Assembly: GCF_001949145.1 (NCBI RefSeq)
Contig: NW_019091361.1
Location: 2,837,825 to 2,901,824 of the forward strand
Source of the DNA: Acanthaster planci
Lineage: Eukaryota
Reading direction: 5' to 3'
DNA length: 64,000 nucleotides
The position numbers and the translations under genes were made by a program. Under the pieces are notes generated by a model. That model was not told where the DNA came from. It did no database searches and saw nothing but the letters and a program-made list of their open reading frames with translations. This document shows positions 22,001-44,244 of this stretch, one piece after another. Positions within the stretch are counted from its first letter, which is position 1. Every line of letters starts with the position of its first letter.

Positions 22001-24926
22001 TAACTGGGCTCGGACCCGAGACTACTTCGCATACAGCTTGTGCACTTACGTGTACGTGATATGATCTGAAGAAACTCCAAAGTGCTACAAGCTAGTGTAA
22101 GACACGGTTGCATAAAAGAGGCCTTAGACTGCGCCAATACTTATCTGTAAAGAAGAAATTGCTGGCTAAAAAATAAGGACGATTGCAAGGGGAAGACGTC
22201 AAAATGAAGTGTCTATGGCGCCTGTCCAATGTTTGTAGTCAGTGGGGCGTAATTATTTGACGGCTTATATTTACTGCCGGAAAAAAACGCATTCGCAAGA
22301 TTTAAAATGGCTGCCGCGTCAGATGTGAACACACTTGGTTTATCATCATTGCTCCTTATATATTAAACGTCAGGTTGGTTTGGTTTCAGCCAGATCATTG
22401 AAATATGTGAGTACTGAACAATCTAAAACATGGATTTGTTGGCAATTCTAGGGCGTTGCGAACATTTTATTATATCATTTGGGACTTTCGTCTGCATGCT
22501 TTTGTTTTATATTCTGGTTTTTATTGTCGTGAAGGAAGGCCTTGTTTCCTCTGATAACAGCGGGGTTTTTGCAGTGTATAACGAATGTCTTTTTAAAAAG
22601 GCCTTTATGCAGCCAGAGCGCCAAATCAAGGTTGTTGGCCTACTTTTGCGTTAATAAAGTTAGTCTAAGGCATAGCTGAAACGATGACTGTTAGAAGGTT
22701 GTTATTACAATGCTCATCATATCTAAGTTTTACCCCTATGGTTTGTCAGATTCGTGTTTGGACTCGAACCTTTTCAAAAGCCGTCACGTTCGCCGAGAAG
22801 TTCGGTTGTGCGGCCTTCGAGACGGCAGAAGAGGCGGTTAACAATGCGGACGTCATCGTAACTGTCACGCGCAGTCACACGCCTGTTCTAATGAGCGATT
22901 GGGTCAAAGACGGAGCTCATGTCAATTGTAAGTGTTTCAGCATCCCCATAATAAGAAGCACTTGATCGTCTGTGTCAGGAATGTGTCAATACGATGTTCA
23001 CTACAAGCTTCCATAAACAGCTTTTGATTTCAAATTCTTAGACCAGTTAACCCTAATTTTAATCAACTTTGCAATCTAAAACAGGTCAAAGTATTTCGGT
23101 GTATGCCTAGTTACATTTGTATATCTTTTCATCTCGAACTGACCCTCTCTGTGTGAGGATAGGAATAACCAGGGGAGGGGTATTGAGATACCAAGGGTTG
23201 AATGTATGAACTGGTCCGCCCCACACTTGACACATGTGTCACTCTATATTGGTCACTTTTTTCTCATTCAGCTTCAAACATTTAATTAAGTTTAAGTGTT
23301 CACTGATCTTCACCCATGCTTTGTCTGGCTGTTGTCTTACACCTTGATATTGGGACCTTGAAGTGAACAAACCTGATATTGTGCTGTGCTTCAAAAATTA
23401 AATTTATCAGAAATGAAATGATGCCAACTACAGTAATACTGATGATTTTTTCTTAAACGGCAAAAAAGATTGTATACCTGCCCAAGACCCGTGCCGCAGG
23501 CTGAAGATGACAAATCTCCTTGGCATGGGCCCTGAACATGGAAAACACACTAAGACCATTTTTATGTCTAAGAATCATCGAAACTTCCATTCTCGGCCTC
23601 GTAGGCGTTGGCGCTATCACACCTGTTCAACAAGAACTTGATCCCGTTTTGATTCGCCGTGCTGTCATCTACGTTGACAGCGTCCAAAGTGCATCTACTG
23701 AATCTGGGGACATTGTCAAATCTGAGGTAAGTCAGTCAATAGTCATGGTCACAGTCGTGACTACAACGACAAGAGACTTCTGGCCGTATCAATGTGGACC
23801 AACTGAACAGTAATAGATTCATAACAAGCACGGCCGCGCAACATGAACAAGTTCATTCTAAAAACTGGAGATTTTGTTGAACTTGGGAAATTGCTGCAGT
23901 AGATAATGGAAACATTACATCTGGCGGAGCAGATTACATCTATATACCACAGAATGTATACCGAAAATTCTCATATAGACAAATCCGAGGAGACGCCATT
24001 CCTGCGGGGCCATCGCACTCACACACCTTCTTAATTTGAGCGCGCGTGCGCACTTTGGAAAGTCACGATACCCAGTTGGTCAGAGAGAAATGTAACGCTC
24101 GCGTACCACCTGCATGCCAATAGGATGGCCCCGCTGTCATGGCTTCTAATTCCTCTCACCGAATTTGTCTATATGTTTAGGATTTTTTGTGGTCAACAGG
24201 TAGCAACTGAGAAACAAATATTAAAAATCAAGATGCCACCTGTGGTGTCTGGGAGAATATTTTCGTTTTAGCCATGTTGACGTCTGGAGGACTCTAAACG
24301 GTATTTCCAATTTAAGAGACACCGGCAATTATATTGCAGTTTTATTAGTGGCCATGCACAAACAAACCCTATTCTCCATACTCAAAACTGAGGGAGGATA
24401 TTATGTACTCCATACTGGCTCTTATGTTTGAACCCTATTTTAATAGATATGCCTATTCTGTTTTTCCAACAGGCAAACATTTTTGGAGAAATTGGTGAAG
24501 TCGCTCTGGGGAAACTCCCAGCTAGGAAGAATGAAACGACAGTGTTCAAGTCTTTGGGTACAAAGTTCTACAGTTTTATATCCGAATTCAGTTGTTTGAC
24601 CTTGCCGATCTCGATGGAATGGTTGAAAGCTAGGATTGCACTTTTCAAGTAGGAGAACAAAAAGAGACAGATGAATGCCTCTCATCAGTCTGTGACACCA
24701 ACAATTGCAAAGCGTTACAAGTTCGCTTCGTAAAAAGTCCCACCTCTGACAACATTGTATCTAACGCAGATAAATGTGTATTGATCATTTAAAAGGGACA
24801 TCAAAAACTTAAAATCCTCTTTCAAACAGCTCTCTTGCACTTTTTTTCTCAGGGTTGGCCATAGAGGATGCTGCGGCTTCCAAACTCGTGTATGACAAAT
24901 ACTACAAGCCAGCAGGCGGGAACTAG
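16055..24926 (+). CDS. CRYM: Mu-crystallin / ketimine reductase-like (ornithine cyclodeaminase/mu-crystallin family), 8 exons, about 318 aa
   Basis: Exons 16055-16236, 17061(or 17064)-17211, 21256-21318, 21486-21587, 22750-22927, 23605-23726, 24473-24557, 24853-24926; all GT-AG with consistent phases. Motifs GGVVQPLR, TMPCYS, CKL, LTSMRTAASSAVATKYL, ILGAG (NADP Rossmann), ADVIVTVT, WVKDGAHVNCVGA, ELD, YVDS, ESGD, TTVFKSLGLAIEDAAASKLVYD. Confidence 0.95.
17415..19506. repeat. Tandem duplication of about 840 bp (17415-18251 and 18659-19506) in CRYM intron 2
   Basis: Near-identical copies from CAGAAAATGTTGGAATGAAGCAG to TGTCGACCCATTG; both carry N bases at the same relative position (17669-17678 and 18915). 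Confidence 0.9.
19433..19588. mobile_element. Palindromic (hairpin) MITE
   Basis: TTCACAATAGTGCGCCTCCAAGAG...GTCGACCC is mirrored by GGGTCGAC...CTCTTGGGGGCGCACTATTGTGAA. Only the left arm is present in the first duplicate copy (about 18178-18251). Confidence 0.7.
19655..19822 (+). mobile_element. MITE (Harbinger-like), copy 2 of 3, internally deleted
   Basis: Homologous to 4659-4868 (ATATGCGCGTCAAC, GCGATTTTGACGGCC, CGCAACGCA, GCATCGTGTAC); ends GGGCACC-TTAA. Confidence 0.65.
23972..24175. mobile_element. MITE with inverted termini in CRYM intron 6
   Basis: CATATAGACAAATCCG ... CGAATTTGTCTATATG termini plus internal GCGGGGCCATC / GATGGCCCCGC inverted match. Confidence 0.6.
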
Positions 24927-25282
24927 ACGCACCGGAATATGTCCAGCTCGTAGTTCTTGAATAGCTGTGTTTGATAGACTGGCACATTTTGCTCTGAGCT
25001 TCAGCTTAAGAGAACTAAACTCAGTATGTGAATAATGTGACCACAGCTTGAGAACTTGGTAGATAGAAGGCACGGTTTGGTGTTCTCCTCCCCTAATTTG
25101 AAGTGTAAAATAATTTCAAGATCAACATTAATGTCGGTTTGAAAGTTGTGCCGGGAATATATAAAATGAGATGATAGGTTTGCACTTCACCAGCGAAGTT
25201 CATTCAGCACTGGTTATTTTCTTTTTTTTTCTGGGAGTTTGTGGGTAAATTGCTAGCTTAGGGGAGGGGGGTTGAATCAATC

Positions 25283-25445
25283 AGCCGGAATTTGCTTACT
25301 GGTTGAATGGTTAAAGCGTCTGCACTAGTAAGCAAGAAGTCGTGTAAGTATGAGTCCCGACTGAGCAGTCTTGTGATTTCTCCAACAAGCTCCTGGGAAA
25401 ACACTGGTAACATCGTTCTTAATAAATTACAGTATAAATATCCAA
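25283..25445 (+). mobile_element. Degenerate tRNA-derived SINE (related to 51620-51780)
   Basis: tRNA-like head TGGTTGAATGGTTAAAGCGTCTGCACTAGTAAGCAAGAAGTCGTG...GAGTCCC followed by a GTGATTT...CAAG body similar to the reverse complement of 51620-51780. Confidence 0.55.
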
Positions 25446-27071
25446 ACAGTCATTTCAGGGCAACACAATCAGAATTGTGGTCATCAGTATTGCCCTTTTT
25501 GGATATGCTTTCCTTTCATATAAACCTTTCCTTGCTTTCATTATGTATCGTCGATTGCATCTTTATTGTGGAGGTGTTTATGTGATATACTGTGTAGTTG
25601 ATTTTCGAGTATGTTATATCTAACGAGATTTTTGTTTCATGTACTCTTGAATGCATTGGGTTATGTTTTCAGATGATTTCTTTATTGTGAAATAGAGGTT
25701 CCTCTACAGTAGCCGCCGTGCTGTCGTACTAGGAAAGAAAATACGAATTGTATTTTGGTTTTAAAGGTGCCATGAAAACCCTTCAAATCAAGATTTCTTG
25801 AGGAAAGACGCCAGTCTTGTTCGACAAGCAACATTTCCTCTGTAAAACAAGAATTTTTTAAAGAGAAGCGCATTTTGCTTTGGTATTGTGAAACGCAGAT
25901 TAGGGTTAGCGTTGAGCGGTCTTCTCGTCGGTTGTTGTCCTGATGTAGGCTATATGTTCCACGTTTGAAATAATTTTTGCGCAGCTGTTAGTCTTATCCA
26001 TGAAATTTTGTTTTTGACTTTTTCCATTAGGTACCCAACCCGAACGATATTAAATTTGCTTTACTTCCCATTTACTCTGTCTGTTCAATAAGCCGATAAT
26101 GACTGTACTATTCACCTTGATATGTGTGTGTCCAGCTCTGAATTTGATCAATTACACATCAAACCATTTCACCTATCCATTCTTTAGTGTCATTTAACAC
26201 ACTTGGGGGAAGTTGTAGTATGGGAATGGTGCATATCAATGTAACGACCTGTTTTTCATTGCACTATGAGCCCCAAAGTTTCATTAATAAGTTATCAGAA
26301 AAAATGAATGATCTTTATTATTGTTTCATGTCACATAAACTACATTCTGCACTAATTACAGTTTCGATGTTATTGTATAAATCTTTTCACTGATGTTTGG
26401 AATTGAGTTTTGGTTCTTTTACTCAAAAGCTGTGTTTTTTTACGCGTGGATTCCATCCATTCCGTCATTGGCCACATATGAAAACAGATTTATCGAAACT
26501 TGTAAACTCCCGTGCTCTGTTAATCAGCAAGCTCAAACCAAATCGGAATTACGGATTTGTTTCTCTGACTATATTTCAGTGAATTCGCACATACAGCGTC
26601 GGAAATTTGACAGCCCGCAAGAATGGATCAAACGAACGTTAGCAAGACATCAGTCCACAGACTTGGCCCAATTTGGCGCTTCTAAGCACAAAAAATTACG
26701 TTAAAAGAGGAAAGTCTGCGTATTTCACTGAGACCGTAAGCTAAGCACAGTAAAAGGCACGCTAACCTCCAAAGAAACATTTTCTTACTTAAACGTGGTG
26801 ATATAATAATGGAAATCTCCGCGCGCACTTTCGCGGTTTTTGTGCTAAAGCATAGCAACTGTGAAATATTCACTGTGAAGTACATGTATGCGCACTGTTA
26901 AGAAAATGTTTATGTTATGGTAGGCCCTAAGCAAAAAAGTTGCTAAACGGTAAGCAGCGTCTAGAAAATGGGCACAGTGAATGATTAGTGACGATATCAC
27001 AAAAATGGGAAGCGGAAGGACAGTCGGAAACTTTCACAGATTTCCATAGCCCCCGTTGGGAACATTCCTAA

Positions 27072-27278
27072 GGTACCTTTCCATGCGTGTGTTTTGGGTG
27101 CGTTGCGTACGCGATGTGTTCATTCATTTCTTTAAATTCACGGACACCAAAATCGACGCCATTAACATATTACACATGCACGTTGCGTTCGGCTGTCAAA
27201 ATCACCCCGGTACTGATTTTGACGGATACTCAACGTTTGTCACAAGTGTTGACGTGCATACCAATATGGAAAGGTACC
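27072..27278 (-). mobile_element. MITE (Harbinger-like), copy 3 of 3
   Basis: Perfect TIR GGTACCTTTCCAT ... ATGGAAAGGTACC flanked by TAA/TTA; reverse-complement homology to 4659-4868. Confidence 0.75.
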
Positions 27279-29021
27279 TTAGTACTTCGCTTGCCGTAAA
27301 GGTAACGATTTATCACGAAGTTCAGGCCGTATTTTAGGGCCTTATGTCATTGTCATTCTATCCACCCCGACCAGGACCAATAGAGGGCACAATTTTACTA
27401 GCAACGGAGGCTCCTTTGGGTGGGAACTGCACTTTGCCGGTTCATTTTGAAATGCCTGAGTTACGATTGCGTCGCTACGGACAAATTGAGTACTCCCCAC
27501 CAACTTGGCTCTTTTCCATAAATGAGGGGGTGCTTTTACTCATCTTGGATACAAGTTGTCGCTGCCACCGTGGACGTAGCTAATTTTGGGTTTTGTTTTG
27601 CTGAGGCTGGACTTTTATTTGGAGGGGATGAGTACCCGGAGACGGCACAGTATAAAAGGGGGTCAATGCCTTGGATTGATGATTTTCACCCCTTTTCCTT
27701 CTTTTCCCCTTTCTCTCGCCTTTTCCTCATTATTTTTATTTATTATTTCGGGAGCGGGAATCGTCTACATCCCCCTCGCGACGCCCACGGCTGTGACCCC
27801 ATTTATTTGGGAACTAGTCGGGTAGGCGGATCATTGGAACAACCTGCAGATCTCAATATGTGAAGGCCCGATTGTTAAAGACAGACTGGGTCTCAAAGGA
27901 GACATGTCTGTTTTCAGAAGCAATAAAAGAAATTCAGAAATGCAGATTTACAATTAAAGGTAGTATTCTATACTTTTTAACGTAATGAATCGTCTACTTT
28001 GCGGCTGTCTCAAGTTTTTGTATTTTTATTTTGGGCGGGCGTAAAGGACATCACAACCTTTCACCAAGTTACCATTCTTAGCTCAGTGTTATTCATTGTT
28101 CCGGACTATCCACTGAACACCAGTTTTTTTTATTATAGTACATGTGCACAATAATGTATTGAGATCTTATTCAAATTGTTGCATAATCAAATTTGGGGTA
28201 GCCCTTTAGAAGCTGAATCTCATGAGATCATTCAAGTGTTTTTACCGGAATGTGAAAATCGTGAATTTGTAAGCAAACCCCTACTGAAAACCGTCCCAGT
28301 GGACATTAGCAGGCAAAGACGGTGCTTTAATCTAGTGCTCGTGTGGTGTTATTCTGTCTCGGCAATTGTTTAACTGAATCGAGGATCTACTTGATATTCG
28401 AATAAAATGCATGGTTTGAATGACGTCGATGAACATGACATGTCCATGGAAGATGCTGGCTTTACGCGACCATGTTGCACATAAGTCACCGAATAATCAC
28501 CGGTTTGATCATGTACACGTGTTTTAGGCGATGTCCTTTGTCAAAATTTTTTCTGGGATGAAGTATAAACCAGTGTATTAAAGGAATATTTCGAACAGTT
28601 CATGTTGTCGTAGTTTACTTTGTTGGCAACACGCCTGGCGGGGTTTCCATGTACGACTACGGTATTCATTTGTCTTGAGCATTGGTATCAGTGACTACGA
28701 CTTCTCACTGCAACTCGCCAACGACATAATATTCGAAGCTGTAGCCGTTCGAGACCGGACCTGTGCATGGCTCGCGTTACCTGTGCCAAAGCCCGGTTCA
28801 CTGAATGATGCAGTACTCTGAAAATATACGTGGGCTAGATGTACACACAGCCTACCGGCAGGCCCAAACCATTGTTAATGCTCTCTCAGCTGTTGCCCTT
28901 TTCATATTGTTAAGGAAATGAATCCTGTACATGTGAGATGAGCGACCATTATACAATGGTACCTTTTAGATGCAGCTGTACGCTCACGTATCGCATTAGT
29001 CCTGTAGGAACGGAAGCAAAC

Positions 29022-29118
29022 ATGGCGCTCAGTCGCAGAAAATTGGGTACTGCAATTTCATTAGTGCTTTTCCTGTTGGCGATGATGTCTGTTGCCTTTC
29101 AGAAGCGGTATGGCCAGG
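29022..29118 (+). CDS. Probable first coding exon of the UGM gene: signal peptide or type II membrane anchor
   Basis: Strong Kozak context AAACATGG; encodes MALSRRKLGTAISLVLFLLAMMSVAFQKRYGQ+G; perfect donor G|GTGAGT (phase 1) compatible with the phase-1 acceptor TTTTGCAG|GC at 33438/33439. Confidence 0.7.
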
Positions 29119-30899
29119 GTGAGTACATATAATTATTTCTGAAAGAGGGAATTAAGTACATGCCAGATTGTGGATTCTGTATTCATGCTGTGCAGTGTTA
29201 ACAACCAATACGCCCTGCATAAGTGTAACGTTAATTTCAAATAATACTTTGACCCACATAGGGGAGACTGGGGAAGGATGCTACAAAATTGACGTTTTAG
29301 ATCATATCACCCCAATGAAATACACCCGGTCCTATATCTTGCATCTGGTGATATCCCACTTTGTTAGCTATAAAATAATGATAGTAAAACTTCCAATCAT
29401 GTAACAGTAATTAATAATTAACTAATTAATGAAGCCAGAAGATCGTAACAAATTACCCAGTATACGGGGTACATTGATACAACATGCAGGGTAAGTTGTT
29501 ACATTATGTTAACATGTGTGCTTTTCATCATGTAAACACAGTTATCAAGCAATTGCTTTTAGCAAACAAAAAGAATATACAAAATCACTTGTAGTTTGAG
29601 CAATATTGTATTACTGGTCATTTGATTCATTTATTGAACCATTAACTGACTTTCATTCTTGAACTCTTAAAATGTCTCTATAGGCCTAATCCTTGTTAAA
29701 GGAATACTTATATACTTATGAATTTTTTCCAAGCAACCACGGAGAAACAACACACAACCCTGAAAGGAGGTGCCAAGGGGACCGAATTGCTGCCCTTTGG
29801 CATGCCCTGCTCGGGGTTCCTGGCAGGCTGAGCGACCTTGAGCGTAAAAAGCGTTGATCTGAAATGTGAAAGTTCTGGCGCTATAAATACCGGGCCGGGT
29901 GTGAACGTTCCAGGCCAAATATTTGTAACGAAAGCATGCACATCAAGAAAATAAACTGGTGCGTGAAAACAACCTGCCCATCACATTTTAAAACCCTGGT
30001 GGCAATCCCGTGGGGATAAAAGTCTCCACATATCACCAAATATGTTCATAACCTTTATTCCAGTGGACCAATTTGGCAACCATTTCATATAATCCTCACC
30101 CCAGGCATACACCACAAGCCTGCAAACTCCCATTGGCCAGACCCCAACCACTGCAGAGTAAGAATTTTTGAAAGACCAGTATCCCCAAAACGCCCATGTG
30201 ACCTGGAAATGACTTGGTTGTAAAAACATCCACCTCGCAGCTCGGAGTTATTTTTGGGGCGTGGCTACAAATGTACTTCACAGCAACGTAATGAAATGTA
30301 GTTAGAGAGGGGACCTGAGGGATGTATTGGCTCCGCGTGGAGAAAAGGTCCCCTTTTTTCCGTTGCGGGGGTTTGTGTCGATTAACCTCACCATTGATGG
30401 ACGCTAGTCAAGACGCACCTGCAACTTATATATCTTATGGTAGATATTGTTGTACTAAGTGTACAATTAAACTATCAACAGAAACATCTACTATGCTCAC
30501 CATAGTTTGTCACCAGGCTAATGAATGGTAAATCCTATTAAGATTTTGGAAAACACATGATCAGGGGTAATTTTCTTAAGCAACCAGGGCAGAACTTGAT
30601 TACATTCTTGGGTTGGCCATATAGAAGTTGAAAGCAAGGTTATCTCATAATTTTTTAGTGGAAATGAAAACAATACAAAGTGAAATGTCATGGCAAATAC
30701 TAGCTGGTGAATAGTTTCAATTTGTTATTTTCTTTTTTAGTTATTTGTTACATTCAGGGAACAAGACGACAATGGCTGCCACGTGAATACGATCCATTAA
30801 GCGCATTCATGGCACACATCAAGTGATTTGCCCACTTTGACACGTAATTGGGGACATAAGTTTTAAGACTTAATGCAGCTTGGTGCAGCTTCGTGCAGA

Positions 30900-32050
30900 T
30901 AATGACTGCGTTTTAGAATGCCACGCCTTTTAGATGTGAATCTCTGCGGAAATTTCATTCTTTGTTTGACATTTCATCCTTGATGTTTATACGTTCCATC
31001 ACGTTTTGCCTCTCCATGAAATCAGTGTGTCCCCGCATTGGGCTTCGCCTCGCGGTTTGGAACATTCCATCTGTCACCTCATGATTTTTTTCCTCACCAC
31101 TGCACCCATAGAAAATTAATTCCTTAACCCTGGTTGCGTCTTCAAAAATTATTACGCAGGCAGGAGGACAGCAGCGCACCCAAAGATAGTGTCAAATAAA
31201 CTGTTGGTATTTGGAATAATTTTGTTTAACAGTTCATTTACAGATTCGGCAAAATCTATCCAATGAGAACTGGAAGAAATTAGGGACCATCGACGAACTC
31301 TATGTACAGAGCGGTGGATACCAGCGCTGACAAAGCCCGAACACAATGCCGGCCATGCAAATGACGAACAAAGTTCAATTTCATCTCTGGTCTTATTATT
31401 AGAATAGGTTGGTTTGGTTTTGTATCAGTTTCTGCAGTACTGGCGTTAGCATAAGACGAGAAATTCACCCTTCGTCGAGACAGTAAGGTAAATTTTATTG
31501 CAAACCTGGTTCCTCTTCGTGCTTTCAAACTCTTTGGTAACCCAGGGGTGTCGGACACTTTGTGGCTTTCTTTGGCAATATAATCACGATTGGAGTAGTA
31601 GATAATGTTCTTCAGTTAATAAAGCAGTGCACTGTAGTTGGGTATAATTTACTCGAGTTTACGATTCCGTTGAGGAACTTAGTTAAAATAATTGCCAGCA
31701 CTTGCACGATCACCAAGATTGTATTGTATTCTCGCGCAGGTGACTGCTTCATGCATAAAATTACATGCAGTGAGGAAATCGGACTCAAAACTTAATCTTG
31801 AAGTCGACACCAGGGTCGCCGTTGACCAAAATCCCGAGCAGAGGAAACCTCCACGCACCCGCTCTCTTCTTGCTCCACCCCTTGTTGCGATTCTCGCGCC
31901 ATCTGGCCGGTGACCACAAATGAAAGTATTCATGCGTGGAATGTATAGCTCGCAAGCTGAAATACCCGGGAAGGATTCCAAAGATACGATTATAAGTAGC
32001 AAATGAAGTCATCGAACACACCGTTCGGTGTTTTTGTCGGTGACCTGAGT
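30900..32050 (-). mobile_element. Highly degenerate LINE (non-LTR retrotransposon) ORF2 fragment in the UGM intron
   Basis: Fragmented minus-strand ORFs with PWVTKE and AESVNELL segments typical of the linker between LINE endonuclease and RT; boundaries approximate. Confidence 0.35.
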
Positions 32051-33438
32051 AACTGTTTTGAGAGGTATCGGCTGCGTTAACTGTTAAACCGAGAATTCGG
32101 CACAGAAGTTAAGAGTCCTTTTAAGCAATACTAGATTTGTTTGATGGCTGATTTTGCTTCGTTTATATGAGTGCCATGCTTATTATTAAAGGAACCTTTT
32201 CCTATGCGCTTCAAAGCACATCATTGAAACGGGAACGTAATTTTGTGTCGCTGTAACTTGCGATACAAAGACAACTGCTCCTTATTTATCAGAGGGTTTA
32301 TAACAAGCTATTTAAAGATTCAGTAAACAGAAATATAATCTCAAATCATATTTGTCTCATTTTATGTTTTTTAAAGTGTTTACTTTTAATCATGGCTCTG
32401 CAGCACCTCCTAAACAAATCCTTAACGAAGGAATGTTAAAGACTCGACTTTGGCCACTGTACAATGTATCTAGGTCTACAAGATAAGATACAGGTGGTCT
32501 GGTAGTTTTCTACAGTTTCTGTAGACTTTGCCAAGCGATTGCCGCCATCACTGAATTTAGTCTATGTATGCATGCATATAGTCTTTGCCCAAGACGTCAG
32601 TAACTGATAGGGGATCGCCGCTCAAAAGGCGGATTCAGAACTAATTTTTTTGGGGGCACTAAATTATTTTTGGGAAGGGGATCGGATGAGGGCGAGGTTG
32701 GATGCCACTGAAGTACATTTGGCATCTCATCAGATTAATCTGCCTGCCTAGGTAATTAGAACTGACACCGGTGACCGCCTGCTGCGCTGAATAATTATTG
32801 GTCAAGTCAGGCTCTAGAAATATTGTACACGTTAATCTCTTGTGAAGCGCCCTGCACAATGCTACTTATCGGCAAAAATGTTCAGTCACTCTCTGCAACT
32901 TTAACGCATTTGTCCAGAACTTACATGTTGAAAACACCAAGTTCTCAATATGTCAAACAGTTTTTTGTAACATGATGTAGTAACCCAGTCATATGAAGCA
33001 AGTACAATAGTTAAGATGACCTTTGAAAGTTAGGTATTTTTTTCTTGAACTAATCTTGTATTTGTTAGAAAAAAAGGTATATTTACCATGATTTCGAAAG
33101 AAAATGTTAAATTGGAATATTTTGGAACATTTTTCTACGTCATGCATCCGCTCTATTTTTGATAAAACGATATCTGTGGTTGTCTGTTGTTTTAAACTTT
33201 TTCTTAAATCTTTCGTAAAATACTGCCATGAGGCGTTTTGAAAAGCAAGCCGCTTTTCCCCTACGCATTTAGAATTGTTGATGAGAGAAAAATGTTTAGG
33301 GTTTGCACAAAATTTGCGCAATAATGTGTAAGAATACTTTCATGACTAATTTCTTTTATAGGATTTTGCCTTTCCCCTGATCCAAGCTGCTCTGTTGTTT
33401 TTAATACTCATTGTTTTTAAAATGTTACTATTTTGCAG

Positions 33439-35069
33439 GCTGGCTTCAACTTGTGGCAATATCAGACGTCTTTGATGGTACTCCGAGAACTTTGAGGGGT
33501 AAGCTTTACAAACACCAAGGCACAATGTCGATTGGCATTACTCAGGAATCCAGCGAGCATAGACAAAGACGTATTATCATCATCGGCTCGGGTCCAACGG
33601 CACTGGGCGCGGCTCGACGTCTCGCCGAACTGAGAGACAAGTTCAACTTCAGAATCACAATCTTGGAGGAAGCAGCCCAGCCCGGAGGGCTTGCCTCCTC
33701 CGAGCGAGATGACAAGGGCTTCCTCTGGGATATGGGGGGACACGTGGTCTTTTCCCACTACGATTACTTCGATAAGACGCTGGATCGGGCCGTTGCGCAC
33801 TGGAATCAGCGAGTCCGGGCTGCTTTCGCTTTCATGATGGGGTCGGACGGCCAGCGGAGGTTCATCCCGTACCCGGTCCAGAACAATATCGAGGTCATGG
33901 ACAAAATCGATCAGAACAAGAGCCTAGCCGGTCTGAAAGAGATCACGCGGAACCCGTCCCAGGGCAAGCCCCGCAACTTCGACGAGTGGCTGCTGCAGCA
34001 CTTTGGAGTCGGCCTCTGTGACGTGTTCATGCGGAAGTACAACAAGAAGGTATGGACTGTTAACACCACCGAGATGAACTCAGTGTGGGTGGGTGAGCGA
34101 GTCGCTGTGCCGGACATCAACAAGATCCAGGCCAAGATCAAAGCCTTCGACCAGGGCACGCCGGCGGAGGACTCGGGGTGGGGTCCCAACCGATTCTTCC
34201 GGTTCCCGAGGTTCAACGGCACCGGGAACATCTGGAGAGGGGTCGCAAGGTTGGTCCCCCGCGAGTGGTTCGAATTCCGGAGACAGGTGACGAGTGTCAA
34301 CTTTGACACCAAGACCGTATCTGTAGAGAGCGCGGGGAATGAACATCGCCTGCTGCATTACGACACGCTCATATCGACTGCACCGTTAGACGAGTTTGTG
34401 CACTTACTCCAAGGTGACGACCCGTCTCTGGCAAGAATGAATGTGTTGGCGTCACAGCTGATCTACTCTCACACGCACGTCATAGGCATCGGCCTTGTGG
34501 GCCAACCGCCGAAGATGTTGTCGGATAAATCGTGGATGTACTTCCCCGACGCCGATTCTCCGTTTTACCGGATCACCGTCTTCTCGGCATACTCAGACGA
34601 TCACGTGCCCAAGGCGGGCGAATATTGGTCCTTGATGTGCGAAGCGGCCGAACCTAAAGACACGCCGGACCGAAGCCATTGGACCCAGGCAAATGTAGTC
34701 GATTCCACAGTCAAGGCTTTGATCACGTACGGTTTCATTTCTGCTGACATGGTGGTCTCCAAATACTACCGACGGCTGGATCACGGCTACCCTGTTCCTT
34801 CCATTGGAAGAGAAGGGATCTTGGAGGTGGTTCAGCCCTGGCTGGAGGCCAAACACATCTACTCCCGCGGCCGGTTCGGGGGGTGGCGGTACGAGGTTGC
34901 AAATCAGGACCACTCTTTCATGCAAGGGGTAGAGCTTGTAGACAAGCTTTTACGAGGGATACCGGAGGAAACATATCCCAACCCGAACCTCGTCAACTCT
35001 CGCAAAAATACGGGTCGCTTCCTTGACAACGATGACTCCAAGAACAAGTTCATCCTCTTGCGCAATTAA
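33439..35069 (+). CDS. glf: UDP-galactopyranose mutase, eukaryotic type (FAD-dependent; UDP-Galp to UDP-Galf), catalytic exon; about 575 aa with exon 29022-29118
   Basis: All signature motifs of fungal, trypanosomatid and nematode UGMs are present: IIGSGPTALGAA (FAD), GGLASS..GFLWDMGGHVVFSHYDYF, PYPVQNNI, FDEW, FMRKYNKKVW, WVGERVAVP, WGPN.FFRFP..GTG.IW, YSHTHVIGIG, WMYFPD..SPFYRITVFS.YS, WSLMCE, HGYPVP, SRGRFGGWRYEVANQDHSFMQGVE.VD. Confidence 0.93.
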
Positions 35070-37712
35070 GAAAAAGCAAAACTTCCAAAAGTACATGAAT
35101 ATCGACATTTTTCCAAAAGGTCGTATTACATATACACGTCAATAGGTAATTTTCCTTATTCAGTTATCAACATGTATTTCTTGTTCAAACAATCGAATAT
35201 GTTTGTACCGCATGGTGCATGAGGTCAGGAGGAAACTTTTCCTGCCCTTTGTAAAATTTGAATATGCAATGAGCAAACTTTCCCACTGACTCCTTAAAGC
35301 AGTTCTATATGTCGGGATATCTTCCCATAATGAAACTAATAATTCCCAATGGTCTGGCTGATCGCCTTTTATCTGTTAAAATCATGTCATTTTACTGTAA
35401 ATAAATAAACTTGATAGCAGTGAACAGGTGGCAATTTTTTATTCAGTGGATGAGAAAGTTCCCGCTTTCAAAAAAATATTCGGATTTTTATAAATAATTA
35501 GCAGTGCTTTCTCGCACTGTCACACTTTTTTACTAAATTTAAGAATTGGACATAACGTATGAAGGTGCAAATAATTATTCCGTGAAACGCTTTTTACATG
35601 CAAAGACGAGGTTTTTAAGAGATTATAGCACGCGTTAAACTAAGATTTCATTCATGGATCACCGTGTTCTTTTTTAGTTTTATGTTAAACCTCAAACATC
35701 GTGCATGAAGTTATAAAGCCTCTCAGATAGTATCCGGATTCGTGTTTTTAATTAGTTTTTTATGTAAAGAATTTAGACTAAAAATTTAAAGCTTTCCTCA
35801 CTGAAAAATCTCTCTGGTTAATACCATATTCTTTGGTAAGCTGAACCAAAAATTGAATCTGTAAACAACGATCCAGGTTTAGTTTAACATGAATACGTAT
35901 AGTTGGGATTCACCCTATTTCAGTTGAAATTAATCGAGGCAACTTTGGATTGTCGTTGACTGTTTTAATTGTACCATTGTTTATGCAAATAAATAGTAAT
36001 GATTGAAAGAAGGAGAGAAATCAATTCTGGACTTGGGTTAACATGTTCTTCTAACGAATCCATCAAAGGCAACGTGAAATGCGGTGAAAACAGCTAGGGC
36101 TGGAATGAACGTGTTGCAGAGATCCTGGTACACCGTATCTTTAATTAGCACCAGTGCTGCGTATTTCGAAGATATTGCTAGTTTTGAAGTGTTCCTCAAA
36201 TTGGAAATTTAGAGAAAGACTGTGAAACTTTAAAATTCCTTAAGTAGGGCCTAAGGATTTTTTGAACACTGTGATGTTGGCATTAATTTTGGTGGCTCCT
36301 GAATTTTTAGTAGTAAGGCTGGAGACTGTGCCGATTAGATATTCCGTTCCTGGTAAAAACAGACTGACATATCTCGTGAATTTGATAAAGAGTGTGGAAA
36401 CGAGATTTTGCATATGCGTTATACACATCCTTTCCACAGGTCGACATTATGGGACATTAAGGTTAATTCTTACGTATTCTGCCGTGTCAATAAATTCCCC
36501 TCAGTTCAACGGATTCCACACTCTTTTGAATGATGTAGTCTATGTTCGTTTAATGCTTCCCCCTGAACCAAAACATTGGAACAAGCTTAAAAAATTATAT
36601 GGTCATTTTAGCAGAAATTTGGCCAAAGCTGTTACTTTTCCTGTGCACTAGGCGGACATTAACATGGCAGCCTACAGGTAGTAAATCTTGGCCAACTGAG
36701 GTAGTCTTGTCAACAACTCCCTCCGTAAACTCATCGAACACGAATACCGGCCAACGGAATGGAACCCATGTGGTAGTGAGTTGGGATTCGAATCTCCTTT
36801 TCGGAGAATTTTTTGAAGTACGGTTTCTTATGACCTGTGAATATTTTGTCTGATCCCATTTCTTGTAAGTCATCTTTTTCTAATTCGTAGCTTGGATGGA
36901 AACGGTCTAACAACTCAACTGGATATTTCAACGTCACCCGACTCAAGATTCCATATAGGAAAGTGAAGTCAGAATTTCATAAGGCAGAGGTCTTATCCAG
37001 GCCGCGTGAATACACACCCGTAACGTTAACGCTGGTGCACATGCGCCGAACCAGCCTGACTCTATATGCAAAATGGCCGCAATAAGGGGTAAGTTCTGGA
37101 GGGACACATTTCTCAACAACTGGTCGATTTTACTTGGTACCCGGGCCTTACTGTAAGCACAGGTTACCAGGGACAACTCAGCAGTAGCCTATTGTCTCTA
37201 GAACTCGCCCAAGGCTATACTTGCCCACCAGTTCAGAGTGAAAACTCCGTAAACAATCAAAGGCCCAAGAATGGCTGTGTATTCTAGTTTGAAAGACTCT
37301 AGAGTTCAACTTCGATTCGAAATACCTTTAAAATATACAAATTACACAATTTAACAAAAGAGCACCAAGGAACGACAATCAAAAGATTGTAAAAGGAAAT
37401 TGCAATTAGAAAAGACAGAACGTTAATTCCACCTTGGACACAGGCGAGAAAGCCATCAGGAAGCATTGTAGATGCCTGGCAAGATAGATATTGACATTGG
37501 TGGGAAAAGAATCAGCAAGAGTTTTCCCTGAATGCCTTATTTTGCCTACAAGCTGTATTTTGCTTACAATGAGCGCAATGCACACGCGGCCGTAAAGGAC
37601 ACTGAGCGCGGTATATATTTACAGTAGTCAAATTACATTCATTCCGGTTTCCACTGGTTGTGGGGAAGTTACCACGCTATACCCGTCAAAGATATAGTGC
37701 AAGAGCCAAAAG

Positions 37713-38810
37713 TATGGTGTTCCATATGTGCCAGTCGCATCTTTCGACGGGCGTCGCATTTTTCAGGCGGCGTCGCATTTTTCGACGGGCGTCGCATTTT
37801 TCACCGGGCGTCGCATTTTTCAACAGGCGTCGCATTTTTCAACCGGTGTCGCATTTTTCAACCGGTGTCGCATTTTTCCGCCGGCGTCGCATTTTTCACC
37901 GGGCGTCGCATTTTTCAGCCGGCGTCGCATTTTTCAGCCGGCGTCGCATTTTTCTCACTGCTACCGTATTTCAAGACGTTCTGTTATCCTTACCCGCAAA
38001 CTTATTAGGAACCTGTTCAGGGTCAAGTCGTCAGGACTTCTTCTCCTAAGATTCAATTTGCGGAGAATTCGGTGCAGCGTTCTCAGGCTGACAGTACAAG
38101 GAATAAAAACATATCCATCTCTATAAAACAATACACAAGTGTTATTTCCACGCATGGGCCGGAGGAAAGCGATACTAACCGTTCAACCATGTCAACATAT
38201 ACAAATAAAGTTGGCCAATACCTGATGGTTATTCGATGACGAATGACCAAAATTGAAAGAACCTCATCGTAGCTGTACCCTGCTTCAAAGTAATGACGGA
38301 CCAATCGGTCTCGTTGTAGGATAGTGTCATTGCCGTCATTGTTAAAAGCATGTTGCNGGTTGTAGCAACGTATACATTTCTACTCAGGTCGGAGGCTACA
38401 GCATGTAGGCTACAGGCTGTGTTATACCAGGCAAGGTATGGGACGGAGGGGTACCCCCTTACCTGTCCAATCCCTATACACACTCCAGACTATTGTTACC
38501 TAACACATCCCCCCTGGAAGTCTGTACAGAATTTCTGGGATTCCGATTAAAAAATAACCAACACAAAGGCGGGGGTTCTCTCCGTCCAATAGCTCCGTCA
38601 AATGGGCTGTCTGGAGGTCAAAGTTAATGCTTTTCTTCCACAAATGCGACGCCGGCTGAAAAATGCGACGCCGGTTGAAAAATGCGACGCCGGTTGGAAA
38701 ATGCGACGCCGACTGAAAAATGCGACGCCGGTTGAAAAATGCGACGCCCGTCGAAAAATGCGACGCCGCCTGAAAAATGCGACACCGGATGGCACACATG
38801 GAACACCATA
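37713..38810 (-). mobile_element. Non-autonomous IS3EU-like DNA transposon with subterminal minisatellites and a truncated, intron-containing transposase N-terminus
   Basis: TIR TATGGTGTTCCAT(A/G)TGTGCCA at both ends with AAAG flanks. GGCGTCGCATTTTT arrays (18-19 bp unit) at about 37731-37952 and, inverted, at 38642-38790. Spliced ORF RHYFEAGYSYDEVLSILVIRHRITIS|LRTLHRILRKLNLRRR (intron 38088-38221, GT-AG). The superfamily call is tentative. Confidence 0.75.
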
Positions 38811-38998
38811 AAAGCCCTATGTCACTGATTTTTTGAACCCTGCTCGAACTCTGGAGGTCAACATTCCACTGACTCAGTGCCATGATTATCGTCGAATCTG
38901 CAAGCATACCTACGAACCTACGCATTGCACAACTGCTGCAAAACTAAGTTGTGCGCTGGTGTTTGTTGTGCGTTGACAAAGTGGTTTCTGTTGCAAGC

Positions 38999-41900
38999 AT
39001 GTTTGCTTCTACTCGCATTTTGCAGACGGCATTCGTCTTGTTCGTTGTGTGTCTTTCCCTTGGCTTCCTTCGGGCGACTTCTGATGAAGTGGGTAAGGCG
39101 GGATGTGGCCTGCATTGGGAGGAATGGAAAGAGGCCCACGAAAAGAAATACGACAGCCTGACAGAAGAAGTCGACAAGAGGCAAGTGTGGGAGAAAAACA
39201 TAGTCGTTGTCAGGGAACACAACTCAAAGACAGGGAGAAGCTTTGATCTCGCCATGAACAAATTTGGAGATCAGACTCATGTAAGTTTTGTCAACACCTG
39301 TTGAAAGTAGTGGCTGCTTGCTCTGATGTTCGATTTGCCATTGTAAAGGTTAAGCCCAAAACAGAAGCTGCAATGTTATTTATGTCCGTGGTCAATTTGT
39401 GCCCCTCTTTCCAATCGGTAGTGTCATCCCCGACCTTTGCCAACTGGCTTGCCATTGCATAGTTTATTCAAGTGTAACATCTGGTAATAAGAGAATTAAA
39501 CATGGAGACATTATTTCAGTGAGAATACCACAAATAAATATGGAATGATGCTCAAGCTCTAAAAGACGATATAAACATGCTCAGCAAATGGAAGTCAAGT
39601 TGGCAGATGAAATTTAACATTGAAAAATGTTATACTATATGCATATTACTCACAAGAAAAAACCTATGTTGTCGACGTGCATAATGAATGGAAGACCACC
39701 TTAGAAGATAAGTAGCCATACTTGCCTGGAAGTAGAAATAAATCACAAACTGAGTTGGGCTTATCATATAAGCAATGTCTCTTCAAAGGCAAACAAGATG
39801 CTTAGTTTACTCCGTAGAAACCTTTAGCTGCTCTCCAAGGGTGAAGGAGATCGCCTACAAAACCCTAGTCAGACCTGGAACATTGTGCTAGTGTCTGGGA
39901 TCCGTACCACCAAGATCACAAAAACAGACAAGAAGCAGTCCAGCGGAGGGCGGCAAGATTTATATGCACAGATTTTCGATAAAAAAGCAGTGTTTCCTTT
40001 ATGATTCAAAACCTGGGATGGAAATCTTTAGAGGAGCGTAGAGCCATCGGTATGGTATAGACTCACTTTATTGAATAAATCCATCCATCATCGAGCATCA
40101 GTGAACGCGGATCATTACCGGTTTAAATCTGAAAGCGAGGGCATTACAACAGGGAAACATCTTTTGTTTCCTTTTCCCATCAATCAGCACAAAAAGACTG
40201 TTACAAATTCTCCTTCATACCTAGGACCCTTGTGAAATGGAATTATTTACCCGGTCAAGATAAGGGAAGCTTCAAACATTGATACCTTCAAAACAAAACT
40301 GCCTATAGTATTGACAAATTATTCATTAATAAAGGGGGCCCACCACATGTATTGGAGTCCGCGAGCCACCACCCACCTGCAACTTAAAAGATTCCATAGT
40401 GGAGGTTGTTGCAGTAATTAGAAGAAAAAGAAATATTCCCTTTAATGTCTCAGTAGAATCAGTGAAAAAGTATTGGAATAAGGTTGCAAAAGTATGGAAT
40501 CTACACATAATGTACAACACGACGAACGTCATCTTTTTGTGTGAAAAAATTAAGCCCTCAAACCCCTAAATTTCCAATTTTCCCACTTTCAACACCGGTA
40601 GATTTGGGAAATCACACTTCATTATTCTCCTCCATTTGCAGGCTGAGATGATTTCCCAGATGAAATATCCGGTGGATCCAATCCAAATTCCCATCACGCC
40701 GCTCCTAAACGGGATCGCCGAGCCACCGTCTAGTGTGGATTGGCGCACCAAAGGCTACGTGACTCCAGTGCGAAACCAGGGAGCGTGTGGCGGATCGGTC
40801 GCTTATGCTGCTGCAGGTAAGTTGATTGAGCGTTAACCCTCAGTCCAAACTTTCTTGGTTCCCCAAAACTGGAAAATTCACCTTTTGAAGGTCGACTGGT
40901 TTTATGCAGACAAGCGTTATGTATCAAGATTTTATGATTATTATTATTATTTTTGGTTTTTAAAACACAATGCATTTGTAGCCCAAAGGCTAAATTGCTA
41001 CATCGTTCAATATTAAAAAGAACACACAACTGCAAACAATTGTTATAAAATAAATAACAGATAAGAACAAGAACATATCGTAAAATGCTAATAAACAAAA
41101 GCATGATTTAAAACATGTGGAAGAAAAGGCTATATGTGATTCAAAATACTGACAAAGTAGGGTGTTGGACTACCTTTATATCTGTTAGTGTTACATTTGA
41201 TGACGGAAAGTGTGTTTGATTTTCGTAATTGATATCGCACACTAGAACTTCTGGGCTGAGGCAACCACTGTCGGAACAAGTCAGAACAGTTAAGTTTAGA
41301 GGCAAAGTCAACGCAAAGGCCTCTTCTACGATCATAGAGAGAGACCATGCAAATTGCACTTCAATAGTGAATATTCGTAATCTCGATAACCCTGGCCCAA
41401 GATAATTTTAAGGGCACGCTTTTGAATACTCTCTAATTTGTGCGCTAGTTAAACCAGCATTCCAACGGGCGTTGCATATTCCGTCAGTGGTCTTATATAT
41501 CCCTGATACACAGTCAATAAGTCATCAAGAGATAAGTGGAATTTATCTTAGCAATTTAAGCATGTACATCTTATTGCTAGCTTTGCGATAAATCTGATCA
41601 ATATGTTTGTCCCATCTAAGATCTGAACTAATTAAAACACGGAGAATCTTTACACAATCGACTTTGTGGAGACCGGTAGAGAAAATCTGTAAAGGGGGAA
41701 ATTGTGGAATATTTTTCATAAAGCATACAGTCATGCAAGCACATTTATCTGGGTTGACTTTCATATTATTTTGTACCACCAATTGACTAAATTCGTCCAA
41801 AACAGATTGAATTGTATGGGGGTTATTCCCTCTACTGTTGTCCACGATAGTCATGTCATCATATTTTAGACTAAGTAATCGACCATTAGTGTCAGTTGAA

Positions 41901-44244
41901 TTATCAAGACGAACAGCGCCATTAAATTTAGCAAGAAAACCCAACGGGCCAGATTTTGTACCTTGCGGTAGTCCACATTTAAGTACATTAACCCTAACCC
42001 CCAAGGGTGAATGTAAAATCGTATTGAAATTGGAGGATTTGGGAGAGTTAGGGTTAAAATAAGATTTTGTATCTGACACACTACGCTCTCTCGGTCAAAA
42101 AGCTGCTAACCCAAGGAATGATTGAGGAGAGTGTGCCCAAGTGAAGCAATTCACGAATAACAATGTTTTGATGAATAAGATAAAATGCCTTACTAAAATC
42201 TGTAACAACCAAAGAACTGTGGCTTTTCGAAAAGTCAGCATGAGCAGCTAAATGATCAATCAGGTTAACCAAATAATGAGATGTTGATACTCCGTTCTTA
42301 TTACCGAACCATTAGGATCCAAGTTCACTTCAATGTCTGAAGATATCTTACTGGTAGCCCTACATACAATGTGGATATACCCACTCGCACAGAAATTTAT
42401 GTATACATTCCGAGTTGACACAAACACACAAGCAGAATGGAAGGCCCGACAAGGAACCACAAGACTCCAACCGTGATATCCTACCAACCGCTGTTGGTCA
42501 AAACTCGCTGTCTCTTTGCGATATATTTCAAAAATTACCCAGGTATTTCTAAAAAGCAGCAGTTCAGTGCCCAATCGTTGCCGGAAGCTGAAACAAGTAA
42601 ACTGTAGACTGAATAAAAAGTACAACTCCTTGATTTTAACAGATACCGTGGCAAGTCGAGAGGCCATCCACGAAGCTAAGCCAGCCCGGGTTCTCAGCGC
42701 CCAAGAGATCAACGACTGTTGTGCAATAACACACAGAGCCTGCCTTCCCCCGATAGTGCTGGACAAAGTGTTTGACTGCATCCATTCTATTGGCGGTCTG
42801 TGTATGGCGGATTCATACCACAAGTCGAAGAATTTCACTTGTAACAACGGAACATGCAGTCCATTCGCAAAGGTATTTCTAATCAAACTCAACCTTTACT
42901 TAAACTTATCATCACAATAATCGCATGTGTGTATTTTAGAATGCCAGATTCGACAAACTATAATGCTCGTTGTAGCTTGAGAACTGAGGTGAAATCACAG
43001 CTGGTTCGATTACCTCCCTCGCGATTTCCTGTCACGTGGTGTCGTGACTGTTTAAACAGGCATGCGCAATATGTGGTGAACGAACGACCTCGAGTTTCTG
43101 ACCAAGTCGAAGGGTCATATCGATTCGGTTTCAAACGTGCAAAAGTAAATCCAAATGGTCAAAAGCAACAGACATCCAAATACACTTTTCTAGCCTTTCT
43201 TACTTAGTTGATGAACCAGATTTGCCACTATTCAAGCATTTTCTGCATCGTTTCTCCGCCAAGTTCGACTAAGCTGACATGTTTTCACATTGTATGGAGG
43301 AATATGCCCTTTTCTCCAAGTAACCGGCTTTGCGGGTCGGTTCCTAATGGACTAAGCCCGAGTAAGCACGCAATATTGCACGTGAGTGTCGAATCGAACA
43401 CAATCTGGCTTGCACGAGCGAGCGCCTATATAGGAAGCGACTCAACGCGCTTCTAAAGAAAACGTTTCACTTCATTTGGGCGCTTTTTGTAATACCAGAG
43501 AATAACCTTGCTCCACAGGTACCGAATGGAGGGGTGCAGGTAGCAACTGGGGATGAGAAAGCCCTAGCCGCAGCCGTAGCCATTGAACCAATACTGGTCG
43601 GCTTGGATGCAAATCATACATCGTTCTTCATGTATCGTAGCGGTATTTACAGCGAGCCGAACTGTAAGACTAAAGAACCCAACCATGCCATGGTCTTGGT
43701 CGGTTATGGTAGCCAGAACGGACAGGATTACTGGATCTGCAAGAACTCTTGGGGTAAATAGTTAACTAAGAGTCCATTTCACTTGCACCTTGTAGTTCTC
43801 TTGGAATATCATTTAAGGACCCTTTTAAAAATCAGATCCTAGACTCTAGATGCTGCTGGTAGCATACTGGCATATGAATGTGATTGTGAGTTAAATTCAT
43901 TTCTTATGTCTCCTCCAACGTGCCTTCCACTCGCAATTATCGTTTTACTTTTTCCAGAATTTCTTCCTGTGGCTGTGAATATTTATTTTTTTTGTTATGA
44001 TAGACATTCCGGACTGAGAGTACAGCTGTTTCACCTCTTGTTTAATTTACCTCTGACTGACGCATACTAGTGTCTATACTCACCATTCCAGATTTTCTTT
44101 GTCAGCCCCCAGTTGAGTTAACTCTTATTTACCTCTTCTGTCTCCTCTTTAGGGGCCGATTGGGGAATGCAAGGATACATTCTAATGGCACGTAACCATG
44201 GCAACATGTGCGGTATAGCTTCCAATGCCACCTATCCAATGTAG
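38999..44244 (+). CDS. Cathepsin L-like papain-family (C1A) protein with catalytic Cys replaced by Ser (silicatein/testin-like), 5 exons, 337 aa
   Basis: Exons 38999-39280, 40642-40816, 42643-42872, 43519-43753, 44153-44244 (GT-AG, phases consistent, 1014 nt). Signal peptide; I29 propeptide (WEEWK..H.KKY, ERFNIN-like E..KRQVWEKN...V.EHN, AMNKFGD); mature [79 protein letters not shown]. Confidence 0.92.
39540..40330 (+). mobile_element. 3' fragment of LINE reverse transcriptase (CR1/L2/Jockey-like), degenerate, in cathepsin intron 1
   Basis: [63 protein letters not shown] across frameshifts. Confidence 0.85.
41200..42280 (-). mobile_element. LINE reverse transcriptase fragment, with a small TIR element (about 41889-42079) inserted
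   Basis: DFSKAF.LI.Q..VI..L..LG.....[16 protein letters not shown] (decayed YxDD), [47 protein letters not shown]...CTGACAC termini around the insert. Confidence 0.8.

Follow-up and report, generated by a model that had tools for sequence, protein, structure and literature searches.

The closest described relatives of the gene reported here are the UDP-galactopyranose mutases (UGMs) of Aspergillus (AfUGM; PDB 3UKA, 3UTE) and Trypanosoma (TcUGM; PDB 4DSG), which belong to a eukaryotic type with a typical Gly-Gly-His loop (PMC3624792) and are placed in the cytosol, from which a transporter serves the Golgi (PMC7278926). Described animal UGMs include the nematode GLF-1 family (C. elegans glf-1, surface coat) and the enzymes of Ciona (IPR004379), which were acquired horizontally and are of bacterial type (PMC13390645, PMC3494510); the IPR004379 domain was counted in only six metazoan species (PMC13390645). 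Furanose donors for Golgi glycosylation are also supplied by the plant UAM/RGP proteins (GT75), which are unrelated, flavin-independent and cytosol-facing, and by Golgi UDP-Araf transporters (PMC6861824). A precedent for a donor sugar made within the lumen by a signal-anchored enzyme is offered by the Golgi type II nucleotide-sugar interconverting enzymes. Animal UXS1 and plant GAE belong to this group. A lumenal UDP-xylose 4-epimerase (UXE) is likewise described in plants (PMC6861824). In this work we describe LOC110988922 of Acanthaster planci, which lies in a stretch of 64,000 nucleotides (assembly GCF_001949145.1, contig NW_019091361.1, positions 2,837,825 to 2,901,824, forward strand), hereafter the window. 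It is a real, expressed gene and a variant of the known enzyme, and its main transcript adds a hydrophobic leader to a protein whose characterised counterparts are soluble and have no targeting sequence.

A protein search matched the product at 100% identity over the query to A. planci LOC110988922, which is labelled 'uncharacterized'. The coding part of its anchor exon comprises 97 nucleotides, from an ATG at 29022 to 29118, and is followed by the donor GTGAGT. Across an intron of 4,320 nucleotides, the 3' end of which reads TTTTGCAG, it joins in phase 1 to a second exon, and the frame then stays open to the stop at 35067-35069, giving 575 amino acids (aa) with no internal stop. A preliminary description, made from the letters of this DNA, had proposed the same gene model, and every coordinate of it was correct. 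The RNA junction that it predicted, 29118/33439 (a skip of 4320 with GT..AG ends), was present in five of the eight sequencing runs examined, from five studies: X1, X2 and X9 showed it in assembled contigs, and raw RNA reads crossed it in X17 (4 reads with 3 starts) and in X18 (8 reads with 6 starts). It is not listed for X3, X4 and X14, and of the eight runs only X14, X17 and X18 are on record as RNA. The RefSeq model (P0003, 603 aa) has the identical junction and starts 28 codons upstream, at 28938. Because the contigs of X1 and X2 begin downstream of that start, at 28970 and 29007 and each at an AG acceptor-like site, 29022, the first in-frame ATG inside them, is the likelier start codon. 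No joint 5' of the anchor exon was seen in the examined runs.

A second junction with GT..AG ends, 31487/33439, was found in X17 only (4 reads, 4 starts). The alternative first exon that it defines has an in-frame TAA right before the donor, and none of the ATGs in 31000-31487 starts a frame that runs through the joint; thus, this minor form could yield an anchor-less UGM isoform, predicted at 514 aa. An out-of-frame ATG at 33475-33477 lies 5' of the internal Met of that isoform and is abolished by a synonymous T>C at 33476 in 6 of the 8 runs, a change that could alter translation of the anchor-less form. RNA reads of X18 also cover the intron part 30600-32450 at low depth and in both orientations, and may represent unspliced RNA, the alternative exon or a separate transcript. 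We rejected contamination or a symbiont gene as the source, since the gene is spliced, is flanked by intron-containing animal genes and has orthologues in other sea stars. The GC3 of the mutase gene is higher than that of the neighbouring NLR gene (0.70 against 0.50).

Judged from its sequence, the encoded protein is a eukaryotic-type UGM with an intact catalytic site, as the preliminary description had held. All 14 PDB sequence matches at E<=0.001 were eukaryotic-type UGMs (Aspergillus, Trypanosoma), the best of them full-length at E 3.8e-115, and identity to the Aspergillus felis UGM was 40% over 513 columns. The bacterial-type profile TIGR00031/GLF did not match the window protein, which in this differs from the Ciona UGMs, although both come from marine deuterostomes and have an uninterrupted catalytic coding region; the Pfam label of the domain is only 'amine oxidase', as for fungal and nematode UGMs. 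When site residues were mapped through the A. felis UGM, 24 of 26 were identical to AfUGM, including H63, F66, R91, Y104, Q107, N207, W315, Y317 and R327. The substrate-binding residues Q107, N207, W315, Y317 and R327 are all kept, as are R182, Y419, Y453 and other substrate-binding positions. The two changes, I65V and S93A, both fall within the NADPH-binding set (I65, F66, H68, R91, S93, Y104, Y317), where five of seven residues are identical. Ala at position 93 occurs in 36 of 58 animal-clade rows versus 2 of 20 bacterial rows. Of the 26 positions, 13 are named in PMC3624792 and PMC7662398; W315 is the residue reported to read the C5 substituent of the hexose (PMC7662398). In place of the GxGxxG of characterised enzymes, the FAD motif reads GxGxxA (Pfam NAD_binding_8, E 7e-11); in relatives it ends in G or A, and nematode forms deviate further. 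A single-sequence fold of the 603-aa model reached a pLDDT of 36.8 and was not used.

By hydropathy and charge count, the N-terminus resembles a type II signal anchor, as had been proposed: a short basic tail, a single hydrophobic helix and a stem precede a C-terminal catalytic domain. For the helix, the best Kyte-Doolittle mean over 17 residues is 2.39, and the net charge is +3 on its N-terminal side and +2 on its C-terminal side. The spliced leader, the stem, GxGxxA and S93A set the window protein apart from AfUGM and TcUGM, and so does the fusion of its relatives to DUF3431. The stem and the FAD motif of the preliminary description are both present, the former measuring about 55 rather than about 50 residues and the latter ending in Ala. 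Its three N-glycosylation sequons (N192, N241, N292) and the lack of a KDEL also stand, but the use of the sequons as evidence of a lumenal location was rejected: their observed/expected frequency is chance-like (animal clade, 1.14-1.19; bacteria, 0.93; three fungal-like rows, 1.01), and the fungal-like rows hold as many per domain (4.0 versus 3.1). One sequon position recurs in 25 of the 58 rows of the animal clade and in none of the 20 bacterial rows.

LOC110988922 belongs to a family that database labels ('uncharacterized' or 'amine oxidase domain-containing') hide. Named relatives were found in Acanthaster (7 loci), Patiria (10), Asterias, Holothuria, Apostichopus, Desmophyllum, Oculina, Acropora, Montipora and the sponge Geodia, with at least 7 paralogs in A. 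planci and at least 10 in Patiria. Of 32 named models from sea stars, sea cucumbers, corals and sponges, 22 have an N-terminal hydrophobic segment, with stems of 20-97 aa, and 19 of these 22 are more basic before the helix than after it. The remaining 10 of the 32 start inside the catalytic domain or at most 40 residues from it, or are fragments, and were not scorable; some of them may be real anchor-less forms. In contrast, an anchor was found in 0 of 11 Aspergillus-cluster homologues and 0 of 44 nematode homologues, none of which lists DUF3431. The window protein is 41% identical to a nematode-like representative and falls in the same supported clade (the nematode rows include C. bovis, not C. 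elegans). Coral proteins of transcript type and those called from genomes part at one point, just before a Gly codon, and coral genomic loci have a phase-1 acceptor at that point; thus, the layout of an anchor exon followed by one catalytic exon is shared with corals. The recent, locus-specific gain of an exon is rejected by this identical arrangement. Outside animals, anchored UGMs occur in Carpediemonas and Mataza, and there are unlabelled proteins with an anchored UGM-epimerase fusion. The idea that this gene or lineage had newly retargeted its mutase is therefore not supported, given the exon shared with corals, the hydrophobic sponge N-terminus and the anchored protist enzymes.

Several paralogs have altered site residues, for example G62V, R182Y and N457S, which fits diversified specificity or decay alike. 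A sea star subclade among P0023, P0032, P0037, P0046, P0047 and P0039 has Val for the second loop Gly; in the same protein set several site residues are lost in one member, and the flap Arg is replaced by Tyr in a paralog from Holothuria. Other UGM fusions were also noted (P0386, P0411, P0419, P0451, P0478, P0484, P0505), namely anchor-UGM-DUF707-UGM in Carpediemonas, UGM-GT90-DUF3431, one with a GT1-group domain and four with NAD-dependent epimerases, two of the four with hydrophobic leaders.

We built trees of 164 rows (about a quarter of bacterial loci), 58 rows and 54 rows, and a fourth of 32 named or source-labelled rows with no mixture model. The window protein is sister to Patiria P0004 (100/99), and that pair is sister to the fused P0005/P0006 (96/85 in the 58-row tree; 90/82 in the 32-row tree). 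Echinoderms and corals form a clade with 100/100 in the 58-row tree. Marine animals and nematodes fall with two viral fusions in one supported clade, from which Aspergillus, Carpediemonas and bacteria are separate (98/93 in the 32-row tree), and the nematode-marine-viral clade has 100/100 in the 54-row tree. A single clade of animals and Aspergillus was rejected (p-AU 0.003, for groups chosen once earlier trees had been seen), and animal monophyly was not (p-AU 0.24; long branches meet in the 32-row tree). Two trees placed corals within the echinoderms, but the test did not reject monophyly of echinoderms (p-AU 0.44), so that a transfer from echinoderms to corals is unsupported. Coral and echinoderm proteins group together with strong support, to the exclusion of the sponge protein, and their identity of about 62-72% is high for that distance. 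An early animal gene with many losses and an exchange with giant viruses are both possible origins; we do not claim a viral origin, since the branching of virus, nematode and marine forms is unsettled and carries a long-branch warning. A search of a phage collection gave no match.

The strongest clue to the mechanism is the fusion to DUF3431, which the preliminary description had overlooked. This domain follows the mutase in 107 of the best 120 matches, and the window protein is among the 13 without it. Its last eight residues resemble the first DUF3431 strand (Table 1), the Patiria orthologue ends likewise, and no DUF3431 was found elsewhere in the window. Because the Acanthaster/Patiria pair is sister to a fused pair, loss is the simplest reading: DUF3431 was likely lost at LOC110988922, and its absence would be a derived feature of this locus. 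Sea stars have stand-alone DUF3431 proteins as well, of which Asterias rubens P0241 carries an anchor of its own, and the domain also occurs in fungi, bacteria and viruses. UGM-DUF3431 fusions without an anchor were found in Pithovirus LCPAC202 (A0A481Z5S5, P0597) and at the viral locus L003; locus L099 encodes the same mutase domain as P0597 and was not counted separately. The Pithovirus protein, labelled 'flavin-containing amine oxidoreductase' and uncharacterised, falls in the same clade as the window protein and has the architecture of its fused relatives, but lacks the anchor. On the 301-kb viral contig, the fusion (L003:706-5914) lies two genes from a collagen-like protein, possibly a glycosylation target. 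Adjacent UGM and DUF3431 genes were seen in two bacterial loci: in a Planctomycetaceae bin (L014:1-2211) a long-form UGM and DUF3431 stand in tandem on one strand, the DUF3431 being joined there to another region that contains a DxD-like motif, and in a Polyangiaceae bin (L036:678-2883) the two are divergent with overlapping starts.

A structure model of a paralog's DUF3431 (pLDDT 96.8) suggests a nucleotide-sugar-binding, GT-A-like fold, which does not by itself imply function. All 41 listed Foldseek rows were of GT-A or nucleotidyltransferase type, at E 5e-3 or worse. A wide VIA search gave heparosan synthase as the best match (Z 8.6, rmsd 3.7, 154 of 206 aligned), and 48 of its 50 rows had GT-A or nucleotidyltransferase titles, the titles of 3d5n and 6caj not saying. 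The Atlas neighbours of DUF3431 were DUF3431 itself, then DUF4422 and unnamed clusters under 0.9.

The sugars that such a family might handle are documented in these animals. Gangliosides of A. planci characteristically end in furanose, beta-Galf in AG-2 and AG-3 and beta-Fucf, specifically beta-D-Fucf, in AG-1, and the Patiria ganglioside GP-3 carries Araf and Galf (PMC8228791). Protoreaster gangliosides carry beta-Galf (PMC3509529), and Galf is found in a sponge glycolipid (PMC7278926). The 2021 review only supposes that furanosyl transferases exist (PMC8228791). In the literature on coral-mucus arabinose we found nothing relevant, and we claim no coral product. D-Gal, D-Fuc and L-Ara share their ring configuration. 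AfUGM accepts UDP-arabinopyranose (PMC7662398), and UGMs accept UDP-Arap inefficiently (PMC6861824).

Taking these observations together, we consider it somewhat probable that LOC110988922 encodes a type II mutase that faces the lumen and provides transferases, probably the DUF3431 domains of its paralogs, with UDP-furanose. The leader would insert with the N-terminus in the cytosol and the flavin domain in the lumen of the endoplasmic reticulum (ER) or Golgi. UDP-galactopyranose (UDP-Galp) would enter by ordinary nucleotide-sugar transport, so that no furanose transporter would be needed; the proposed starfish route would thus skip the transport on which the plant system, with its cytosolic UAM, depends (PMC6861824). 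The imported UDP-Galp, or a sugar of the same configuration, would then be contracted to the furanose donor, with reduced FAD attacking C1 as in the fungal and trypanosome UGMs and occasional re-reduction by lumenal NADPH, for which hexose-6-phosphate dehydrogenase would be a source. In the fused paralogs DUF3431 would transfer the furanose and so pull an unfavourable equilibrium of about 11:1, the DUF3431-less LOC110988922 copy would feed a lumenal furanose-donor pool in trans, and the Galf, Fucf and Araf found at the ends of sea star gangliosides would be among the products. The Golgi interconverting enzymes have tightly bound NAD+ and need no outside reductant, whereas UGM needs reduced FAD. 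Because reduced eukaryotic UGMs perform several hundred turnovers before oxidation (PMC7662398), this reductant problem is real but modest.

Several observations weigh against this proposal. What connects the family to gangliosides is that species and chemistry happen to coincide. The charge bias of the window protein itself is weak, and sequons are not enriched beyond control groups. Of 80 bacterial UGM loci only 2 carry DUF3431, as do only 14 of 148 distant representatives, so the link between the two is not obligatory. The fold matches of DUF3431 are weak, only 3 chains reaching Z>=8, a level that the tool calls common, and its expected DxD position, assigned by eye, reads mostly F-L-Q-G-x (F-L-Q/P-G-x); GT-A families without a DxD exist. 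Owing to the changed site residues of paralogs, part of the family may not be mutases. Expression was low in the runs examined, and in X17 the anchor-less transcript had the same read count as the anchored one.

The anchor-less transcript also bears on an enzyme that acts in the cytosol, either tethered to the cytosolic face of the ER or Golgi beside a transporter, or with the 514-aa isoform as its working form. Such an arrangement would agree with an alternative first exon that has no coding capacity, with the basic residues that also follow the helix, with the retention of NADPH-binding residues in a protein that would meet plentiful NADPH, and with the anchor-less viral fusions. However, we hold it to be unlikely in view of the type II charge pattern of most anchored models, the recovery of the anchored junction in five runs against one for the alternative, and the conserved DUF3431 cysteines (present in 29-44 of 54 fusion rows at four columns versus 0-8 of 56 stand-alone rows), which hint at disulfides in the fusions. 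If the domain does enter the secretory pathway, its leader might be a cleaved signal peptide, leaving a soluble lumenal or secreted flavoenzyme of mucus, gut or coelomic fluid that would still be a mutase if retained in the lumen. The helix ends in small residues (S-V-A, before F-Q) that by eye agree with a signal-peptidase pattern, there is no KDEL, and the N-terminus of Apostichopus P0312 is signal-peptide-like with no basic residues before the helix; yet most paralogs have longer helices followed by the aromatic and charged stems typical of uncleaved anchors, and UDP-sugars and NADPH are generally scarce outside the cell, which makes cleavage distinctly unlikely in our judgement. A lumenal protein could also act on another nucleotide sugar, or be a non-mutase flavoprotein that aids DUF3431 partners. 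The many sea star paralogs, several with altered site residues, and the level of only about 40% identity to characterised UGMs would suit this, but LOC110988922 keeps the whole canonical site including W315, and we regard such a role as very unlikely.

A wider extension of the lumenal mutase proposal is conceivable, and we put it forward only tentatively, as more doubtful than the proposal itself. Sponges, corals and echinoderms might share a lumenal furanosylation machine, an anchored flavin mutase fused to a new glycosyltransferase family, DUF3431, which would make and at once transfer Galf, Fucf or Araf. The cassette would also be present in giant viruses, sea star paralogs would encode different ganglioside linkages, and LOC110988922 would be the free feeding subunit, with a cytosolic isoform produced through its alternative first exon.

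The coordinates of the gene and of the other features of the window are collected in Table 1. Immediately upstream of the mutase gene lies a member of the ornithine cyclodeaminase/mu-crystallin family; no connection between the two was seen. The two arrays of 19-bp units are about 700 bp apart and apparently in opposite orientation, like the ends of a foldback element. An Rfam search of 26000-38000 gave no match.

Table 1. Positions of LOC110988922 features and of other features, counted from the first letter of the window.
Feature	Positions	Strand	Basis
In-frame 28-aa upstream extension of the RefSeq model; doubtful	28938..29021	+	P0003 start
Coding part of anchor exon: start codon, basic residues, hydrophobic helix, stem start; phase-1 donor	29022..29118	+	sequence, splice reads
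Predicted signal anchor or signal peptide, residues 8-26	29043..29099	+	hydropathy
GT-AG intron, 4,320 nucleotides	29119..33438	+	sequence, reads and contigs
3' end of alternative first exon (5' end not fixed), non-coding in UGM frame	31458..31487	+	X17 joint
Single exon: rest of stem and entire predicted eukaryotic-type UGM domain	33439..35069	+	
Internal in-frame ATG, first of exon 2; start of possible 514-aa soluble isoform	33525..33527	+	sequence
Gly-Gly-His histidine loop	33735..33743	+	alignment to AfUGM
Last eight residues and stop; likely stub of first DUF3431 strand	35043..35069	+	resembles linker/first strand of fused paralogs
3' untranslated region	35070..36475	+	continuous X9 contig to 36475; AATAAA at 36489
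Weak rhodopsin-type G-protein-coupled receptor fragment	1604-1960	+	
Retroelement aspartyl-protease fragment	6247-6624	-	
Ornithine cyclodeaminase/mu-crystallin family gene, spliced	~15900-26245	+	Pfam E 1.7e-11 for one exon
Array of 19-bp units, 11.6 copies	37734-37954		
Array of 19-bp units, 7.7 copies	38642-38788		
Cathepsin L-like gene	38948-43761	+	I29 and Peptidase_C1 exons
Reverse-transcriptase remnant inside cathepsin L-like gene	41543-42094	-	
Weak Peptidase_C1 match inside cathepsin L-like gene	42477-42920		
Death-domain fragment	49354-49677	+	
NLR frame, uninterrupted 1,397 codons	55750-59943	-	NACHT and leucine-rich repeats

In the open literature we found no description of anchored or DUF3431-fused UGMs, although subscription papers (e.g. 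the original GLF/GLF-1 reports) may mention them. No paper that combines UGM with DUF3431 turned up, and the papers listed for DUF3431 by itself all concern Aspergillus. The available portions of PMC6994554, PMC11304992, PMC8724618 and PMC5561611 do not describe the anchored UGM-DUF3431 family; the available text of PMC13390645 does not contain 'transmembrane', 'signal peptide' or 'DUF', and its supplementary tree includes an echinoderm sequence. The preliminary description had spoken of an undescribed animal glycosylation route and had asked whether anchored UGMs were already common and described in invertebrates. The route has indeed not been described as far as we found, but its likely furanose products were already known in A. 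planci; anchored UGMs proved to be shared by sea stars, sea cucumbers, corals and a sponge, and it is only their description that we did not find.

The interest of this finding lies more in the family that it exposed than in the LOC110988922 locus itself. Because database labels hide this family, they may explain why a 2026 survey, which used the bacterial-type domain, counted UGM as rare in animals. For decades the furanoses of sea star gangliosides and of sponge glycolipids have been known from chemistry; the family now provides candidate genes for the donor-making and transfer steps in a species with known products. If the domain is lumenal, it would break the pattern of cytosolic furanose-donor synthesis and import seen in fungi and plants and would raise the question of how a flavin stays reduced in the lumen; if the proposed transfer step is true, it would also provide the first function for DUF3431.

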